64,000 nucleotides of DNA from a virus (Duplodnaviria > Caudoviricetes): positions 4,003-68,002 of IMG/VR virus record IMGVR_UViG_3300029288_000170. The stretch is one strand, 5' to 3'. Both the position numbers and the translations under genes were made by a program. Below are positions 13,566 to 23,008 of the stretch, one piece after another (position 1 is the first letter of the stretch; each line of letters opens with the position of its first letter). The notes beneath the pieces were generated by a model. That model ran no database searches. It had not been told where the DNA came from and was given only the letters and a program-made list of their open reading frames with translations.

Positions 13566-13602
13566 ATAAACAACTTTACAAACACTAACAAAAGGTGATA
13601 CA

Positions 13603-13779
13603 ATGGCAATATATCAAGAAAACCCTGATGGTAGTTTAACCTGTGTTAAAGCAGATACTACACTAGCAGATGTAATTACAGAAAAGACGAACTCTTTACT
13701 AGAACAAGGACTAGAAGTAACTCCTTGTGTTAAAGAACTACTTGAACTACCCGTACCATCAAAAAAGAAAGAGGTATAA
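13603..13779 (+). CDS. Small hypothetical protein (58 aa), not in ORF track
   Basis: AAAGGTG RBS, ATG 13603, MAIYQENPDGSLTCVK...KKKEV stop 13779; fills the gap before the tail tube gene. Confidence 0.6.
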   Translation: MAIYQENPDGSLTCVKADTTLADVITEKTNSLLEQGLEVTPCVKELLELPVPSKKKEV

Positions 13780-13782
13780 TCT

Positions 13783-15060
13783 ATGGGTGTTAAATTTCAT
13801 GAGAAGGCGATTGCCATTTACGGGGTAGCTCAGATAGCAGAAGGCAACTCAGCTATTAAGACAACTGCTCAAACCACTGGTACAGTAACTACTACAGTAG
13901 CTTCGGCTAACTTAGTTGGTACAGGTACAGAATTTTTAACTGAATTAACCGTTAACTCTTATATTTTTGATCCTACTGGAGCTATTATCGGTCAGGTTAA
14001 AACAGTAACTACTGATACTGCTGCTGTCTTGTATGATGTAGTTCCTGCATCTGCTACAGTTCAAAGTGCTGGTGTTATGGCTATTGCAACTGCTGTTACT
14101 GATGTTGAGTTCTCTACAGGCTTAGGCCCAAAGAACGCATTAGCAGTTCTTAACCTTAACTACTCTACTGAACTAGAAACAGAAGCTTTCCAATATACAG
14201 GAGATGAATTAGATAGAGATGAAACTACTGTTATTAAAGACAAGTACGCTAAGTTTGATTTTGAAACCTTTATTCCAGCACTAGGTACTATTGCTGGTAC
14301 TGATCCTACTGTATATGAAATACCTATGCCTGATTGGTTTCAAGCAGCAGGTATGGCAGCAGTACTATCTACTGGTTCAGGTGGCTATGTTAAATATACT
14401 AATGGTGTTGCATCTAATGTATATATGACTATCGAAGTTAGACGGTCAAGTCCTGATTTGGCGGCATTGTTCTTGCAAAAATCGTTTGTAGTTACTGATG
14501 GTCGTGGTAACGTAGACTTAGACGATACAATGGGTACTAAAGGTAAGTTAAAATGGAACTTCCAAGGTAATTTAACTACTATTGCAGATAAAACAACTAT
14601 AGTACCCAACTTTGTAGATCAGAAAACAACTGTTGCGGGTTCGATTAAATCCTCTACTATCTCATTGTCTGAGTTAACACTTTATACTGATGCTAATGAA
14701 CCAGCAGTAGGTGGAACTAGTAACGTCTGTTTCGATAAACTAAATGCACCAAATGTATCTGGTTTTGAGTACTCTAGATACTTAACTGGTTGTGGTGATG
14801 GTTGGTCAAAAGGTGCTGTTCCTACTGATGTAACTATTACTATTATTGAAGATAAGGCTGGTGCTACTTATAATCCAGATGACCAGTTAGAGGTTAACCA
14901 TAAATTGACTTTGAGATATGGTTCAACTACTGGTTTTAAAGTTGAGAAAACTTTTAAGAAGTTGCAGTTGGCTAAAGTAACAAATAGTAAGGTTGCTAAT
15001 TATTCTGGACAGGATTTATCTTTCAGAAATATTGGTGTTACTGAGTTAAAACTTTATTAA
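13783..15060 (+). CDS. Major tail tube protein with N-terminal inserted domain
   Basis: 425 aa, high-expression codon bias, followed by hairpin and chaperone genes; Thr-rich insert GTVTTTVASANLVGTGTEFLTEL. Confidence 0.75.
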   Translation: MGVKFHEKAIAIYGVAQIAEGNSAIKTTAQTTGTVTTTVASANLVGTGTEFLTELTVNSYIFDPTGAIIGQVKTVTTDTAAVLYDVVPASATVQSAGVMAIATAVTDVEFSTGLGPKNALAVLNLNYSTELETEAFQYTGDELDRDETTVIKDKYAKFDFETFIPALGTIAGTDPTVYEIPMPDWFQAAGMAAVLSTGSGGYVKYTNGVASNVYMTIEVRRSSPDLAALFLQKSFVVTDGRGNVDLDDTMGTKGKLKWNFQGNLTTIADKTTIVPNFVDQKTTVAGSIKSSTISLSELTLYTDANEPAVGGTSNVCFDKLNAPNVSGFEYSRYLTGCGDGWSKGAVPTDVTITIIEDKAGATYNPDDQLEVNHKLTLRYGSTTGFKVEKTFKKLQLAKVTNSKVANYSGQDLSFRNIGVTELKLY

Positions 15061-15068
15061 TCTTTATC

Positions 15069-15093
15069 GGGGAGTGTAACAACTCCCCATTTT
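15069..15093 (+). terminator. Stem-loop after tail tube gene (terminator/attenuator)
   Basis: GGGGAGT-gtaaca-ACTCCCC followed by ATTTT. Confidence 0.6.
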
Positions 15094-15110
15094 AAACTAT
15101 TGGGGTCAAT

Positions 15111-15335
15111 ATGAAAGATCAACATACGCAGATTAGAGGATATAGGGACTTATCACAAGAAGAAATAAACCTGATGAATGAAATTAAAGATACAGGTATA
15201 GTCTTAGGTTCTTTAATTGAAAAGTTGCAACTATACAAACAATTAGATCAAAGATTTGTAGCATTAGGTAAAACAGACTTACAAACAGGTATTATGTACC
15301 TAGTTAGAGCAGTAGCTCAACCAACAACTTTCTAA
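15111..15335 (+). CDS. acb2: Anti-CBASS cyclic-oligonucleotide sponge, Acb2 family
   Basis: QHTQIRGYRDLSQEEINLMNEIK ... RFVALGKTDLQTGIMYLVRAVAQP matches the Acb2/T4 Vs.4 signature including Y11 and K26 at the same positions as in PaMx33 Acb2. Confidence 0.9.
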   Translation: MKDQHTQIRGYRDLSQEEINLMNEIKDTGIVLGSLIEKLQLYKQLDQRFVALGKTDLQTGIMYLVRAVAQPTTF

Positions 15336-15358
15336 ATAACAACATTGAGGACAAAACA

Positions 15359-15820
15359 ATGGCAAAATTATCAGTAAAACTTCAAAAGCCCACAATCGAA
15401 TTACCAGTTAAAGCTAAAGATGCTGCTGGTGAAATAGATACAATTAAAGTAGGCTTCAAACGCTATGAACAAAAAGACTCTCAAGCTAAATTGAAAAAGC
15501 TTCAAGAGATTCTTAAAGCAGAAGAAGAAAATGAAGAACCTACTACCGAACAGTTAGATAAAGCGATCTCAGAAGAAATCGTTTATATCAAAGATGTTAA
15601 TCTTGAACTAGAAGATGATAATGGCAAGGTTAAGAAAGTACATATAGCTGACACCCGTACAGCTACTCCGATTCCTACTCTGTGGGAGACTAGTGAGGAA
15701 TGTTTAGCCGTCCTCACTGAACTCTACCTCGCTTCTTCTCCTTACAGAGTAGGTCTTTTATCTGCATCTATGAAAGCATTAGTTAATAGTGACTTTGCTT
15801 CCGGTGAGATAAAAAACTAA
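15359..15820 (+). CDS. Tail assembly chaperone (gpG-like)
   Basis: Position before tape measure; ends in slippery ATA AAA AAC TAA. Confidence 0.75.
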   Translation: MAKLSVKLQKPTIELPVKAKDAAGEIDTIKVGFKRYEQKDSQAKLKKLQEILKAEEENEEPTTEQLDKAISEEIVYIKDVNLELEDDNGKVKKVHIADTRTATPIPTLWETSEECLAVLTELYLASSPYRVGLLSASMKALVNSDFASGEIKN

Positions 15821-16197
15821 TAGAGGCTGGTGAGATACTAGGAAAGGCTGTTCTTTCAATACATAAACAAGCTGAAATTGATAAGGTAGATGAAGAAGCT
15901 AGTTTGTTGGAAGAACAGTTCCCTGGAATGGTGTTTGCAGAAGATGAAGAGGAAGATATAGAGGAAGAAGAGGAAGTATTTTACTTATGGGATAGTTTAA
16001 ACTACTTGTTTGAATTATATAAAATTCTGAAAAACTACAACTCTGCAAATTACGAAATCAATTCAGCCGTTATGCTAAAACTTATAGATGTTGACAATCT
16101 ACCAGTCAAACAGACTATAGAGTATATCCCGTACCTACATTCGGGTTACATTAAAACCATCCAACCTCGGACTACTGATAATGGCAACGGCAACTGA
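15810..16197 (+). CDS. Tail assembly chaperone gpGT extension via -1 programmed frameshift
   Basis: A AAA AAC heptamer at 15810-15817; the -1 frame is open (LIEAGEILGKAVLSIHKQ...) and continuous with ORF 15904..16197. Confidence 0.8.
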
Positions 16198-19100
16198 AAA
16201 AACGCTAAAAATCAGGATAGTTACTCAACTATCTGGTGAAGATGCTTTCAAAAAGTTAGGGGCTAGTATAGACTCTGACAACACAAAAATCAATCAATTC
16301 TCTACAACATTAAAGAAAAACAAAGAGGGTGTAGATGTTTATACACATTCAATTCAATTACTTTCTAAAAACCTTAACGATCTTAGAATAGCTAAAGAAG
16401 TAACTGATGCTGTTTTTAACAATAAAGTTAAAACCAACAATCCTATTATCTCAGAAAATCCACTTAAATCACAACTCACGGCACAAAACCAAATTGCTGC
16501 TGCCTATGCTGAACAATCCAGACTAGCTACTGCAAATTTATACAAGCAACTAGCTTTAGAACAATCTATTCGTATAAATGGAAACACTAGTTTAAAAGTC
16601 TTACAGCTAAAAGCTGCACAAGATGAACAAGCTATTAAGGAAAATCTGGCTAATAGATTAAACTCCATTGAAGAAGATATTAAAAATGGAGTTATTACTA
16701 AAGTTAAACAAGCTGAGAAAGCTAGGGTAGATGCTGTAAAACTTGCTGCTAAAGAGATAACACAAATACGTAAAGCTACTGAAGCAGAAGAGTCTAAAAT
16801 AGTTAAACGGGATACTTCTGCTAATATCTTTAAAACTGAAACTGATAGAGCCATAACTGAAATGAATAGAAGATTGTCTATGGAACAAACCATTAGACAG
16901 CATGGCGCTAAAAGCATAGAAACCTTAGAACTGAAGTCTGCTAATGAAGTAATAGCTATTCGTGAACGTATGGCTGCTAAATTGCTTGAAGTAGAAAATA
17001 GATTACGTACAGGTACATTGGGTAATAGAGGGCAAGCAAATTTAATTCGCTCGAACATTCTTAAACAAGAAGAACGTGAAATCAATCAAGTTACTTCCAG
17101 TTATGATAAACAGATACATGCTTTGCGGGAAGCTGCAAATGAACACCAAAATTTATTTACACGGGTTGGTGAGATTGTAGGTATTTACCGTATATGGAAC
17201 TTTACCATTAACTCTGTAGTTGCTGCTTTAAAAGCTATCCCAAAAATAGGCATTGAGTTAGAATCTACCCAAGCAAGTTTGACTGCTACAACAGGTAGTT
17301 CATCTGGTTTGGCTAGTGTTATGAGCTTTTTAAAGAATGAAGCTGAAAGAACTGGTATTGCTGTAAGCACGTTAAGAGAAACCTTTAGAGGTTTTCAAGC
17401 ATCTACAAGTTTAGCTGGTGAAACATTACAAACTACTGTTAATATTTTTCGTGATATTAATACAGTTGTGACTAGTTTACACTTACCTGCTGAAAAAGCT
17501 TCTGGTATATTCAATGCGTTAGCTCAGATATTTAACAAATCTAAAGTACAATCAGAAGAGTTAGTTAAGCAGTTAGGTAACTTAATTCCTGGTGCGTTTG
17601 CTGCCTTTGCTGCTGCTAATAAAGCCCAATTTGCTAATTCGTCTATTCTTATTGAAGAAATGAAGAAAGGAACGGTATTTGCACACGAAACAGTTGAAAG
17701 ATTTGCTGCGTTCCTATCAAATAGATTTGCTTCTTCTTTTGATATTGCTAGTAAAGGATTAAATGCAAATATCGGTAGGATGCAAACTAGTTTTACATTG
17801 CTAGGAGAAGCTATTTATGGTTTATCTTCTGGAGCTTTAAGCGATATAACTAAAAGTTTAACTTCTTTTGCTAATTACTTAACATCATCTATAGATGGTA
17901 CTACAAATCTAACTGTTGCTGTAAAAGGCTTAACGGAAGCTTTAATACTTTTAGCCAGTGCAGGTTTCTTAAAAGTTATAGACAAAGCTTTATTAGCTAG
18001 TTCAACTATAGTCGCAACTACTGGTGTTATGGCTAGGCTGTCTGGTGCCGGTTATTTAGCTGTAGCGGCTTTAGATAAACTAAAATTGGCTTTTGGTTTC
18101 TTAGTAAACCCATATACAATTATTGCTGGTATTGGTTTATTAATTTATCATTTTGGTAACTTACAAGATAGGGTTAATGAGACTGCTAAAGCGGTAGCAC
18201 AGAAATCAAAAGAAATGTTAGAGTCTATCAAAGCGGCTCAAAACCCATCTAGGGAGAAAATACTACTAGAATTAGATTTTGATGTTGCCAATGATTCTAT
18301 GGTAAAGACCTTACGTAAACAGATTCAGGAAGAGCAAAAAAATATATCTGATTTATCTAAAAAACAATTAACATTAGGTTTTTCAACTAAAGAAGCTATC
18401 AAACAAAATGATGAAAGAGTACAACAACTTAAAGAGGCTAGAATCCGTTTACAGGATTTAACCAAAGAAGAAGCTAACGCAGTAAAGGTAGCTAAAGAAA
18501 AGTTGCAAATTCAAAATGCTGAACAACGAACTTTAACTAATCTAACGGGTGTAAATCCTGCTGGAGTTTTACGTGAACAAAAGCTAAAAGAGCTTAGTTT
18601 TACTAATCCTGTAGCTTTTGCTAGAGAAAACTATCTAGAAACTGCTTCATCTGATCTTAAAGGGTTATCTGAAAAGATAGAACAATACCCAAAAGATATA
18701 AAAGTACTCCAAGATGAAATAGCCAATTTAACTAAAGTAGCTTCTACGGCGACAGGTTCACAATTAGAAGAAACTACTATAGCTATTGAATCTTTAAAAG
18801 GAAGATTGAATGAAACTAAAACATTATTAGATCAATCAATTAATAGTGTTAATTTAATTTATAGTAATGCTGATAAGGCAGCAGAGAAAGCTAAGACTAA
18901 AACAGAAAAGTCAGGTAATAAAGCTGTAGAATCTGCACATGCTCTAAGTATGACTACGTTAAAAGCACATTTAGCTGAACTTAAAGAAGCTGCTGAGACA
19001 GAAGTTAAAATTCATAAGGATAAACAAAACGAATTAGATTTATTGCAAAAATTAGGTAGAGTTTCATTAGCTACTTACTACTCAGGTTTGATTGAAGAAA

Positions 19101-22100
19101 TTAAACTAGGTGCGGCTGAGCAGGAAAAAGGCATTAAAGAAAGGATTGATGCTATTAATGCTGAACTAGGTAAAGTAGGTGATGCTAAGGGCGATCCTAA
19201 ACGTAAAATTGAACTTAATAAAATGTTGTTCTTAGCTACACAAGAATTAACACAACTTAAACTTTCAACTGCGGATCAATTACGTAAAATAGATGAAGAT
19301 GAAATAAACAAACTAAATGAAGTTTCTGGTAAAACAGATGTTGTTATAGAAAAATATAACCGTTTACTTTCTACTTTACGTGGATTAAAAGATGTAAGAG
19401 ATAGTAAAGGTAAACCGATTATTGATGCTAAAGACTTTGCAAGTATTCAGGATGACTTACAAAACAAGATAGCTAATGAACATGCTAAACCATCAGAAGG
19501 TTTAAAGTCGTACAATGAACTGATTAAGGATATTATTGCTAACACTAAAGACCTTGGTGCTACTAACTCAGGTGTTTTTGATGCTGCTTTAGGTGGATTT
19601 AATCAACTAGCAGGTGCTTTAGATAACTTATCTGAACACTTAGAGTTCTATGCAAATAAACAACTAGAACTTAATGATAAGAAGTTTAAAGCAGAAACAG
19701 AAAACTCTAAAGAACTTGACCCTGTTTTACGTTATGCTAGAGAACTTGATATAGCTGAGAAAGCGGCAGAAGCACAAAAGAATCTAAACTCTGACACAGT
19801 TAAGGCTAAACTAGCTGGTGTTAGTCAGATGTTAGGTGCAGCAGAAGGTATGTTTAAGAAAGAATCTGGTGCAGCTAAGGCATTACATTCATTAAATGCT
19901 GTACTAAGTGCTGCTAGGATAGCAATGGCTATAGCAGAAAAAGCAGAGTCTTTAAAAACTATGGCAGTTAATGTTGCTGGAGGTGTAGCTAAGATGTTTG
20001 AACAATCTGGTTGGGCTGGCTTTGCTGGTGCTGCTGGTTTCTTAGCTTTAATGGCTGGTTTAGGCTATAGTGCTTTTGGTGGTACATCTAAACAAGAAAT
20101 ACCTACTGATAGTGGAACTAAAGGTACAGTTCTGGGTGACAATGAAGCTAGTTCACAATCTTTATCTAATGTAGCAGAACTACTTAAAGACATTCATGCT
20201 AAAGAATATAGAGAACTGGTTGGTATTAATCAATCTGTAACTAGTATGGCAGCAGGTATACAAGATGCGGTAGCTAGTGTATTTCGTGGTGGTGGTTTAG
20301 AGACTACGTCAGCCGGTTTTGGTAAAACGATTGGGGTAGGGGTAGGAGGGTTTGCCCAAACTGCGGTGAGAACTTTTGATAATATCTACAATCCAGTCAA
20401 TTTGCTTGTACGTAAACTTCCAGTTGTAGGTAAGTTTATGGAAGCTATAGATGGATTTTTATTCGGCACTAAAAAAGTAGAGCTAAAGGCTGTTGGTATT
20501 GAAACTGCTATAACTAAATTAACTAATATAGCTGCTGGTGTCAATCCTACCCAGTTCCAAATAAATCACGTTAAAAAGAAAGGTGCATTAGGTGGACTAT
20601 TTGGCGGTAACAAAGAGTTTGATGAACAATTTAACTCACCATTAGATACTGAAACTGCCTTGACTATTAACAAAATCTTTGCTAATGCTGGTGAAGCTAT
20701 CTTTGGAGCATCTAAAGTATTTAATAATATCTTCGATGAAGCAATAAACAACTATGTGCTGCCTGGTTTAAAGGTAGATTTGAAAGACCTTAAAGGAGAA
20801 GATGCTGCTAAGAAGATGCAAGAAGCTATTTCAACATTACTAGATACTGCTTCTGGTGCTATCTTTGACTCATTAAAACAATTCCAACAACTTGGTGAAG
20901 GAATGTTTGAAACAGTCAACCGAATAGTTATAGATGTATCTGTAGTTCGTGATAGTTTAAAGATGGTAAACACCCCATTAAAAGTTCTTGGTTTAGATGC
21001 TATACAAGTTGCAGAAGCTATTGTAACTGCTTCTGGGGGTATTAAAGAAGCTAGAAGTAACTTTGAAAGTTTCTTTGAAAAGTTCTTTAGTGACTTGGAT
21101 CATCAGCTATATAACTTTGAAAACTTGCAGGGTATGTTACAAGACATGAACTTAACCCTTCCGTTTTCTAGAGAAGGTTGGAAAGATTTAACTCAGGAAA
21201 TGTTAAAAGGTGGTGTTGCTACAGCTACTACTGCTGCAAGGCTGCTCGAACTAACAACTTCTGCTGATGAGTTCTATAAGTTCTTAGAAAAAGGCGAAAG
21301 TAGGTTCCAGAATGTTTCAAGTGGTGGTCAAAACATTATAGATAAACTAATTGAACAATTAAACTTCTTATACGTTAAATTTAGTAATATCTTTGCTGTA
21401 ATGTCTATTGATCCTAATAGAACTTGGGCAGGTTTTGACAACAAGATGCAAGAAGTTGTAGGAGCGGCTAAAGAAAGTTTAAATGCTTCTCTCTACGCTT
21501 TAGACCAATTAACTGCATCTATTCAACGAGGTATTTTAGATAAAACTAATGCTTTTAAAGACTTAATTACTACAATCGGTATAAATACTTATCAGACTTT
21601 AGCTACTGCTAGACTAGCTGGTGACTTAAATAGTGCTGATTGGAATAAACAGTTTGCCGCTCAACGTAAGTTAGAAACGGTAAGAGCTAATGTAGTTAAG
21701 TTAGAAGATGCCTTAACACATAGGCAACTAGTTAGATTTAATGCGGAACTTAATCGAAATATAGCTGGTGAAGATTTTCAAGACCGCTATAATCGCCAGT
21801 TCTCAGCATTAGAGAAAATCCAGAACCTAGTACAAACTAAATATGACAAGGAACTACAACTACTAACACAAACTATAACTGCAATCTCAGGTATACAAAC
21901 ACATGTAAGAGAATTGTTAACAAACGAAACATTGTCACCTTTGTCTAACACACAAATGTTAACAAGACTTCGTGAACAGTTTGAACTAACTTTACAAGCG
22001 GCAAAAGGTGGCGATGTAACTGCTTTAGGTAATGTAAACAGCACATTAGATGCTTACTTACAACAAGCTAGAACATTCTACTCTTCATCTGAGCAGTATA

Positions 22101-22963
22101 GTAAAATATTTACACAAGCTACTACAGATGCTTTAAGTCTCACAGATTTGGCTTTAACAACTGAGGAAAAGATTGAATCTAACACAGCTAATATGGTATC
22201 AGAACTGCAACGTCTGCAACTTAAGTTAGATGAGTTAGAACTAGCAAGACAAGAAATTGCAGTTACCGACCGTGAAGCTTTACTTACCAAATACGATCAA
22301 ATTGCTTTTAGTTTCTTATCTTCTATACAAATCTTAGTAGATAAAGCAGCTCCTGGAAGTGGTGTAGATGTAGGTAGAAGTTATGGTGGAACTGGTAGTG
22401 GTACTTCAGGCAAAAACAACTTCACTACAGTAGATGCTAAAGTTAGGAAAGAAAACATAGATCACTTTAATGCTTTAATAAGTGCATCTAGATTTGCCGA
22501 AGCTGCGAAGTTTGGTTTAGGCAAAGGTTATAGTAAACAAGCTATTGCTAAGTACATGTCTGATGTGTACGGTATCTCCCAAGGCGACACTATGAAGTGG
22601 TTTGCTGCTAATGGTTTCGCAGTTGGAGGTGCCTTTACTAATGGAGTAGTAAGTAGACCTACTTTGTTCAATGCTGCCGTAATGGGTGAAAAGGGAAGTG
22701 AGGGAATATTGCCTTTGTCTAATGTTGGTGGTATACTAGGTGTACATGCAAATATAGGTGGTAGTAAGGAATTGATAGCAGAAGTTAGGGCTTTAAGACA
22801 AGAAGTTAGTTCTTTACGTAATGAAGCTAAACAACATACTGGCGATCTAATTGCTTATAACTATGATGCTACTAATAAAGCCGCTCAAACTATAGTTAAA
22901 GGGACTGATGAAGCAACGGATAAACTTAATTGGAAAGAGAAATCTAAACCAGCTTTAGTTTAA
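16181..22963 (+). CDS. Tail tape measure protein (2260 aa)
   Basis: Very long helical Ala/Leu/Lys-rich ORF; tape-measure domain (GIFNALAQIFNKSKVQSEELVKQLGNLIPGAF); C-terminal FAVGG...MGEKGSEGILPL motif. Confidence 0.93.
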   Translation: MATATEKTLKIRIVTQLSGEDAFKKLGASIDSDNTKINQFSTTLKKNKEGVDVYTHSIQLLSKNLNDLRIAKEVTDAVFNNKVKTNNPIISENPLKSQLTAQNQIAAAYAEQSRLATANLYKQLALEQSIRINGNTSLKVLQLKAAQDEQAIKENLANRLNSIEEDIKNGVITKVKQAEKARVDAVKLAAKEITQIRKATEAEESKIVKRDTSANIFKTETDRAITEMNRRLSMEQTIRQHGAKSIETLELKSANEVIAIRERMAAKLLEVENRLRTGTLGNRGQANLIRSNILKQEEREINQVTSSYDKQIHALREAANEHQNLFTRVGEIVGIYRIWNFTINSVVAALKAIPKIGIELESTQASLTATTGSSSGLASVMSFLKNEAERTGIAVSTLRETFRGFQASTSLAGETLQTTVNIFRDINTVVTSLHLPAEKASGIFNALAQIFNKSKVQSEELVKQLGNLIPGAFAAFAAANKAQFANSSILIEEMKKGTVFAHETVERFAAFLSNRFASSFDIASKGLNANIGRMQTSFTLLGEAIYGLSSGALSDITKSLTSFANYLTSSIDGTTNLTVAVKGLTEALILLASAGFLKVIDKALLASSTIVATTGVMARLSGAGYLAVAALDKLKLAFGFLVNPYTIIAGIGLLIYHFGNLQDRVNETAKAVAQKSKEMLESIKAAQNPSREKILLELDFDVANDSMVKTLRKQIQEEQKNISDLSKKQLTLGFSTKEAIKQNDERVQQLKEARIRLQDLTKEEANAVKVAKEKLQIQNAEQRTLTNLTGVNPAGVLREQKLKELSFTNPVAFARENYLETASSDLKGLSEKIEQYPKDIKVLQDEIANLTKVASTATGSQLEETTIAIESLKGRLNETKTLLDQSINSVNLIYSNADKAAEKAKTKTEKSGNKAVESAHALSMTTLKAHLAELKEAAETEVKIHKDKQNELDLLQKLGRVSLATYYSGLIEEIKLGAAEQEKGIKERIDAINAELGKVGDAKGDPKRKIELNKMLFLATQELTQLKLSTADQLRKIDEDEINKLNEVSGKTDVVIEKYNRLLSTLRGLKDVRDSKGKPIIDAKDFASIQDDLQNKIANEHAKPSEGLKSYNELIKDIIANTKDLGATNSGVFDAALGGFNQLAGALDNLSEHLEFYANKQLELNDKKFKAETENSKELDPVLRYARELDIAEKAAEAQKNLNSDTVKAKLAGVSQMLGAAEGMFKKESGAAKALHSLNAVLSAARIAMAIAEKAESLKTMAVNVAGGVAKMFEQSGWAGFAGAAGFLALMAGLGYSAFGGTSKQEIPTDSGTKGTVLGDNEASSQSLSNVAELLKDIHAKEYRELVGINQSVTSMAAGIQDAVASVFRGGGLETTSAGFGKTIGVGVGGFAQTAVRTFDNIYNPVNLLVRKLPVVGKFMEAIDGFLFGTKKVELKAVGIETAITKLTNIAAGVNPTQFQINHVKKKGALGGLFGGNKEFDEQFNSPLDTETALTINKIFANAGEAIFGASKVFNNIFDEAINNYVLPGLKVDLKDLKGEDAAKKMQEAISTLLDTASGAIFDSLKQFQQLGEGMFETVNRIVIDVSVVRDSLKMVNTPLKVLGLDAIQVAEAIVTASGGIKEARSNFESFFEKFFSDLDHQLYNFENLQGMLQDMNLTLPFSREGWKDLTQEMLKGGVATATTAARLLELTTSADEFYKFLEKGESRFQNVSSGGQNIIDKLIEQLNFLYVKFSNIFAVMSIDPNRTWAGFDNKMQEVVGAAKESLNASLYALDQLTASIQRGILDKTNAFKDLITTIGINTYQTLATARLAGDLNSADWNKQFAAQRKLETVRANVVKLEDALTHRQLVRFNAELNRNIAGEDFQDRYNRQFSALEKIQNLVQTKYDKELQLLTQTITAISGIQTHVRELLTNETLSPLSNTQMLTRLREQFELTLQAAKGGDVTALGNVNSTLDAYLQQARTFYSSSEQYSKIFTQATTDALSLTDLALTTEEKIESNTANMVSELQRLQLKLDELELARQEIAVTDREALLTKYDQIAFSFLSSIQILVDKAAPGSGVDVGRSYGGTGSGTSGKNNFTTVDAKVRKENIDHFNALISASRFAEAAKFGLGKGYSKQAIAKYMSDVYGISQGDTMKWFAANGFAVGGAFTNGVVSRPTLFNAAVMGEKGSEGILPLSNVGGILGVHANIGGSKELIAEVRALRQEVSSLRNEAKQHTGDLIAYNYDATNKAAQTIVKGTDEATDKLNWKEKSKPALV

Positions 22964-22972
22964 TATTTATAA

Positions 22973-23008
22973 GGTAGGTTAATGTAAAAGTTAACCTACC
23001 ATCTTTTT
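22973..23008 (+). terminator. Rho-independent terminator after tape measure
   Basis: GGTAGGTTAA-N8-TTAACCTACC then ATCTTTTT. Confidence 0.7.

Follow-up and report, generated by a model that had tools for sequence, protein, structure and literature searches.

The 74-residue open reading frame at 15111–15335 (+ strand) of the window, by which we mean the whole 64-kb stretch analysed here, taken from a 68-kb linear IMG/VR viral contig with an estimated completeness of 66%, clearly encodes a protein of the Acb2 family, judged by both its sequence and its modelled fold, with homology far beyond chance. Members of this family act as ‘sponges’ for the alarm nucleotides of bacterial immunity. The gene sits between those for the tail tube and the tail assembly chaperone, and its polymorphism among close relatives leads us to regard it as accessory cargo, apparently gained, swapped and lost by recombination in a ‘plug-in’ slot, and as no fixed part of the tail module. 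With good confidence, we take the most likely product to be a late-transcribed Acb2 hexamer, expressed by read-through, that would sequester the cyclic di- and trinucleotides of CBASS.

Family membership and predicted fold

Against the Pfam model PF24729 (Acb2/Tad1 hairpin) the translated reading frame scores 61.9 bits (cut-off 27; E 6.5e-17), with the model matched over its full length (1–58), and a phmmer search of PDB sequences returns PaMx33 Acb2 (8h2j, 8ixz) at E 1e-16 and T4 Vs.4 (7uq2) at E 1.2e-3; the search against Acb2/Vs.4 that the original prediction had proposed as a check therefore comes out in its favour. Likewise, every residue of the Acb2 signature that it had read from a 74-aa ORF is present (Y11, K26, R48...K54-T-D-L-Q-T-G60...R66-A-V-A-Q-P71). 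It had, however, placed the feature at 15069–15335, of which the end holds but the start does not: position 15069 is the first base of a hairpin, and the reading frame begins at 15111.

An AlphaFold2 model, built with 61 homologues in the alignment (pLDDT 86), consists of two long antiparallel helices, spanning residues 16–41 and 47–69, with extended N- and C-terminal segments; that is, the helical hairpin by which we judged the Acb2 protomer fold. When this model was submitted to Foldseek, ranks 1–9 were all occupied by Acb2 and Vs.4 chains, the top six being Acb2, with 8h2x and 8h2j as the best matches (TM up to 0.77). The gene is single-copy within the 68-kb record, where the PF24729 match was reproduced on the genome. 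A second sponge, of the Sequestin family (PF21825), was not found in the record, in a search that was weak in that the control genomes gave no match either. Homologues of this kind carry the NCBI label ‘Acb2/Tad1 domain-containing protein’; matches of 222 bp are found in many cultured phages (Salmonella phage Arash, Acinetobacter phage Ac42, several Vibrio phages and jumbo phages), and homologues occur in podoviruses, in myoviruses and in replication modules.

At 74 aa, the protein has 19 residues fewer than the 93-aa Acb2 of PaMx33, all of them missing from the tip of the hairpin. The description of it as a ‘compact variant’ is correct insofar as the central hairpin is shorter than that of PaMx33, but not in the sense of a special or unusual form, as a length of exactly 74 aa is shared by 107 of the 120 best-matching database homologues. 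We also considered JBD67 Acb2 as a further compact form of ~75 aa, as deletion coordinates had indicated (PMC10312549); this was ruled out, the annotated gene translating to 108 aa.

Predicted ligand-binding pockets

Residues 1–38 and 47–74 align without gaps to residues 1–38 and 66–93 of PaMx33 Acb2, whose cyclic-dinucleotide (CDN) pocket, as defined experimentally, comprises Y11, L14, K26 and P90, and whose cyclic-trinucleotide (CTN, cA3) pocket comprises R67, A70, I71 and T74 (PMC10312549, PMC12393519). All four CDN-pocket residues are kept, as Y11, L14, K26 and P71. The CTN-pocket equivalents are R48, A51, L52 and T55, in which the R/T pair is kept, at two positions (R67 and T74 in PaMx33) that are variable across the Acb2 family as a whole. 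Y11, K26 and T55 do not vary in any of the 107 homologues that are 74 aa long, and 105 of these also have R48. From this alignment, both ligand pockets are apparently intact.

In PaMx33 Acb2 a helix kink at E64 opens the cA3 pocket (PMC10312549), and the position of this kink falls within the shortened loop of the 74-aa protein. Acb2 homologues vary in their ligand spectrum, some binding the Thoeris signal 3'cADPR instead (PMC12393519), so that sequence is no sure guide to specificity.

Genome setting

The window has a GC content of 34%, and its structural genes, terminase included, run co-directionally on the + strand from ~4630 to 29939, in a block with a lambda-type portal (PF05136) and a gpE-type capsid protein (PF03864). 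Terminase has a closest match of only 32% identity, and neither Megablast with 12 kb of the tail region nor tblastn with the tube protein gave a match among 50,697 phage records; no cultured relative is therefore identifiable.

The gene immediately upstream of acb2 (13783–15060, +) encodes a 425-aa protein that has no match in Pfam or PHROG, and which we assign as the tail tube (major tail) protein from its AlphaFold2 model (pLDDT 89.9), for which the best Foldseek matches are the tail tube proteins of T5 (pb6), DT57C and P74-26 (E 1e-9, probability 1.0). Its fold is of the duplicated, trimer-ring type seen in T5 pb6 and P74-26, and some 80 homologues were found in metagenomes, with none from cultured phages.

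Downstream, at 15359–15820 (+), lies the gene for a 153-aa tail assembly chaperone, assigned from a PF08748 match that is marginal at 21.2 bits (cut-off 21.1), and from its adjoining the tube gene in 20 related loci. By three-frame translation and the list of open reading frames, it has a −1 frame extension of the gpGT type (15808–16197, +): a slippery A_AAA_AAC lies directly before the chaperone stop codon, and the −1 frame stays open for ~125 further codons, overlapping the start of the tape measure gene. The stretch at 15800–16197 thus has the features of a canonical −1 programmed frameshift. The tape measure protein itself (2260 aa; 16181–22963, +) matches PF20155 (TMP_3) at E 1.3e-14, and right behind its gene a terminator-like hairpin with an 11-bp stem and a T-run occupies 22973–23000, beyond which same-strand tail genes continue.

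The hairpin and transcription signals

Behind the tube gene lies a hairpin (15069–15088, +) with a 7-bp GC-rich stem and a 6-nt loop, followed by AUUUUAAA. It is stable (−14.2 kcal/mol; z −4.6), with equal folding reached in none of 200 shuffles, but with a T-run of only 4 it fails a simple terminator rule. The location of acb2 between tube-gene hairpin and tail chaperone, as originally described, is thus borne out by the tube model, the PF08748 match and the stability of the hairpin. We suggest that this structure is probably a leaky terminator (attenuator) or an element that stabilises the mRNA, the 4-U tail making a terminator function uncertain. If it does terminate it would have to be leaky, because the genes for the chaperone, the tape measure and the distal tail proteins all lie behind it and have no visible promoter.

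The start codon of acb2 is 22 nt 3' of the hairpin stem, and 23 nt separate its end from the chaperone gene. DNA alignments with a relative that lacks the gene (L004, below) delimit a 243-bp cassette at 15100–15342 (+), with borders good to a few nucleotides, that consists of the reading frame, a 7-nt trailer and an 11-nt leader in which a run of GGGG resembles a Shine-Dalgarno sequence. Scanning revealed no promoter-like or terminator-like site of the cassette's own. In particular, a scan with a sigma-70-like consensus, which may not be the host's type, gave no promoter-like site in 15061–15110; this agrees with the earlier statement that no separate promoter is evident, and the early promoter hidden in that interval, which had been named as the finding that would speak against a late gene, was not seen. 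Across the region as a whole, promoter-like matches fall below the number expected from shuffled sequence (23 vs 45.7).

Lacking its own transcription signals, and placed behind the hairpin, acb2 would have to be transcribed by read-through. We consider it likely, for what is an uncultured metagenomic contig, that this occurs late, on the morphogenetic mRNA, with the dose of Acb2 being the lower level that the hairpin would set for all of the genes behind it. The original proposal that the inhibitor is timed with morphogenesis is a reasonable one on these grounds; its further suggestion, that Acb2 could be packaged into virions, finds no support in our analysis.

The strongest promoter-like match in this region (TTTACA, an 18-nt spacer with TG, TACAAT) lies elsewhere, at 13575–13604, in a 37-nt gap that precedes a 58-aa reading frame and the gene for the tube, whose expression it might raise as an internal late promoter.

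Variation at the slot among relatives

Relatives were collected by a search with the tube protein and the contents of their post-tube slots surveyed by script; a metagenome contig scan returned only L004. Among the 20 distinct contigs surveyed, the slot is empty in 12 and holds other genes in 5, these being two different endolysins, an HNH endonuclease and a 236-aa protein of unknown function.

The closest comparisons are the most telling. In L004, with a tube protein 92% identical in amino acid sequence and a chaperone gene 94% identical in nucleotides, acb2 is absent: the same hairpin is followed directly by the ribosome-binding site of the chaperone gene, so that the two sequences differ by a 243-bp indel at 15100–15342 of the window. 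In L039 and L040 (JGI metagenomes 3300068450 and 3300068443; tube 93% identical) the slot holds an 80-aa Acb2 that is 56% identical to ours, extended by 6 residues at its hairpin tip, and encoded behind an unrelated RNA hairpin. The chaperone gene of L039 is nevertheless 99.6% identical to that of the window in DNA, and the two acb2 reading frames end in the same 24 nt, which places a recombination breakpoint at the conserved 3' end of the acb2 ORF; comparison of these sequences points to an allele swap by recombination. L041 (tube 75% identical) has the second hairpin, behind which no more than the terminal 19 nt of the acb2 region survive (final codons, stop and spacer), a remnant that has the appearance of a deletion scar. 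The gene had been described as ‘hard-wired’ into the tail operon, and this we can discard: acb2 is a presence/absence cassette of 243 bp, with an empty slot, a different allele and a remnant all represented among its relatives.

In most of the more distant relatives, with lower tube identity, the chaperone gene lies directly behind the tube gene. Others at lower tube identity carry an Amidase_3 endolysin (L045 and L046; L045:4271-4807), an M15 peptidase endolysin of the Peptidase_M15_4 type (L057:4699-5166) or the 236-aa protein (L061 and L062), and the HNH endonuclease is found in one Logan contig (tube 68% identical). That the slot holds endolysins in some relatives is in keeping with late expression from it. 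As an observation in its own right, L045 and L057 have the gene for a lysis enzyme right behind that of the tail tube, and hence inside the tail operon.

As to how the cassette might be lost, a short repeat resembling a ribosome-binding site (TTGAGGAC or TTGGGGTC) stands ahead of both acb2 and the chaperone gene, and recombination between the two copies could excise it. The third-position GC content of acb2 (GC3) equals that of its neighbours (0.21).

The hairpin has its own pattern of variation. That of the window (15069–15088) is identical in L004, although the flanking coding DNA is only 86% identical, and at the corresponding position L039 and L041 have an unrelated hairpin of equal stability (−21 kcal/mol; z about −5). 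Two unrelated hairpins thus stand behind the tube stop codon (L039:4279-4336 and L041:4276-4332, against 15062–15100 of the window) between flanking genes that are 88–99% identical. Such non-homologous replacement suggests, at the level of sequence, that the structure itself is under selection.

For us, this polymorphism is the most useful part of the locus, as it amounts to a ‘natural experiment’ in which near-identical phages have an empty slot, allele A, allele B or a deletion scar, and which shows how anti-defence cargo that lacks its own transcription signals enters an essential operon, is exchanged there and is lost again.

Proposed function and alternative explanations

Synthesising these findings, we propose that the 74-aa protein most likely forms a homo-hexamer, with ligand pockets at the interfaces between protomers, and that this hexamer would sequester cyclic dinucleotides, and probably also cyclic trinucleotides, made by the cGAS-like enzymes of host CBASS systems, such that CBASS effectors would never be switched on.

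A related possibility is that the Acb2 fold serves here as a sponge that has been retuned to another immune signal, such as the 3'cADPR of Thoeris, and does not inhibit CBASS. There is precedent for this, in that type I Thoeris is inhibited by 10 of the 46 Acb2 homologues that were tested, among them Acb2_43, which does not inhibit CBASS (PMC12393519), and the short beta bridges at residues 11 and 71 of our AlphaFold2 model could be read in the same direction. The four CDN-pocket residues and the CTN R/T pair are, however, all kept, and are invariant across the 74-aa subfamily (with R48 in 105/107), and the sequence is much nearer to that of PaMx33 Acb2, a CBASS binder, than would be expected of a rewired pocket; we therefore regard retuning as unlikely. 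Position might instead be taken to indicate that the protein merely resembles Acb2 and has a part in tail structure or assembly, as an additional chaperone or an accessory of the tube, as the gene sits between those for tube and chaperone and would be co-transcribed with them. That it is wholly absent from relatives whose tube protein is 92% identical and whose chaperone gene is 94% identical in nucleotides, that the chaperone gene directly follows the tube gene in most relatives, and that homologues are found in podoviruses, myoviruses and replication modules, together make such a role extremely improbable.

Two further explanations concern the expression and the fate of the gene. A cryptic promoter, located perhaps within the 3'-terminal part of the tube gene, might drive acb2 early or on its own, in which case the position of acb2 would be uninformative about timing. 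Weak sigma-70-like matches do exist inside the tube gene (14846–14874, 10/12; 15006–15033, 9/12), and the promoter type of the host may differ from the consensus used; yet such matches are rarer here than in shuffled sequence (23 vs 45.7), both lie upstream of the hairpin, and the cassette itself brings only the 11-nt leader, all of which renders independent expression very unlikely. Finally, the repeated loss at the slot, empty in L004 and reduced to a remnant in L041, might be thought to mark a decaying passenger that is on its way out and has no current function. An intact reading frame in which every invariant residue of the family is kept, a GC3 equal to that of the neighbouring genes and a plausible ribosome-binding site all speak against decay, and we give this explanation scarcely any credence. 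A hexameric, CBASS-directed sponge, made late by read-through, is accordingly the reading that we retain.

Comparison with known systems and placement in other phages

The nearest characterised proteins are those of the PaMx33/PaMx41 group (PDB 8H2J, 8H2X, 8IXZ-8IY2), with which ours shares Pfam family, fold, Y11, L14, K26 and P90 of the CDN pocket, and R67 and T74 of the cA3 pocket. Genes of the PaMx type differ in their setting, as in PaMx43, where acb2 closes the replication operon and is followed by a terminator of its own, unlike the gene described here, which is inside a tail operon. T4 Vs.4 (PDB 7UQ2) has the same fold and the same CDN-binding N-terminal motif but is far more distant (E 1e-3); it does not bind cA3 (PMC10312549), whereas the 74-aa protein keeps both of the cA3-pocket residues. 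Comparable in arrangement is the Acb2 of JBD67, a temperate Pseudomonas phage, which has been functionally validated, binds cGAMP and cA3, and is likewise encoded co-directionally within a late structural operon. It differs in its annotated length of 108 aa, which includes a long central region, in occupying a head slot and not a tail slot, and in belonging to an unrelated phage. Its gene is naturally absent from JBD18, a close relative (bioRxiv 10.1101/2022.03.30.486325), and the pair thus parallels the presence and absence that we see at the tail slot and shows that such variation inside a structural operon was already known.

The cassette also invites comparison with phage ‘morons’. Classical morons, cargo genes of the Hendrix type in late operons, carry their own promoter and terminator. 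As with these, acb2 is a small accessory gene that some close relatives have and others lack, and is flanked on either side by an essential structural gene; unlike them, its cassette brings only a ribosome-binding site, with neither promoter nor terminator.

The original prediction had contrasted the tail operon with an early anti-defence region. This contrast holds for the founding PaMx-type gene, which ends a replication operon, but not in general, as JBD67 and six further lineages have acb2 in a late or structural placement. In JBD67 the gene is flanked by those for the major head protein and the head-tail adaptor; in Vibrio phages 1.087.A and H188, it lies just ahead of the sheath gene; in Acinetobacter phage Ab9 and in podovirus contigs related to it, between the portal and protease/capsid genes, beside a Sequestin gene; in Leptolyngbya phage Lsp-JY19, behind the capsid gene; in Xanthomonas phage PB119, ahead of terS; in Vibrio phage 1.204.O, where the T7-like late region ends; and in VP882, at the end of the tail cluster. 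Early placements, among replication and recombination genes, are found in PaMx43, Pseudoalteromonas phage B8b, a T4-like contig and three other contigs, where acb2 lies beside or among recombination and replication genes, with ERF or RecT in only two and no informative neighbours in the third. Late or structural placement is therefore about as common as early placement for Acb2 genes, a point on which our literature search returned no relevant explicit statement.

Taken on its own, the gene described here belongs to a known family and lies in a cargo slot of variable content, a well-supported but ordinary case; it adds one more predicted Acb2 sponge, in an uncultured, low-GC siphovirus lineage with a T5-type tail tube. 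We can nonetheless put forward, tentatively and as rather less than an even prospect, a broader model in which the post-tube junction is a dedicated late-expression slot in this group of phages, with acb2 alleles being exchanged at the conserved 3' end of the coding sequence and repeatedly deleted. Such flux might arise from alternating selection, where hosts with CBASS favour the sponge and hosts that sense sponges, for example through Panoptes, penalise it; and, if about half of acb2 genes are more generally tied to virion-gene operons, the sponge could appear together with the capsid and tail proteins that trigger signalling immunity. Were late co-expression of sponges with immune-triggering virion proteins to prove general, it would bear on when CBASS signalling must be suppressed, a speculative point and one that is not specific to this locus.

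A related arrangement is found in the head module of BPP-1-like podoviruses, namely contigs L028-L031 and Acinetobacter phage Ab9 (L034:2998-3725), in which a Sequestin-family gene (PF21825) and a 74-aa Acb2 gene stand in tandem between the portal and protease/capsid genes. The Sequestin family is one that we take to be a sponge family directed against Thoeris, and, on the basis of gene content, the tandem would constitute a two-sponge anti-signalling pair inside the head module.
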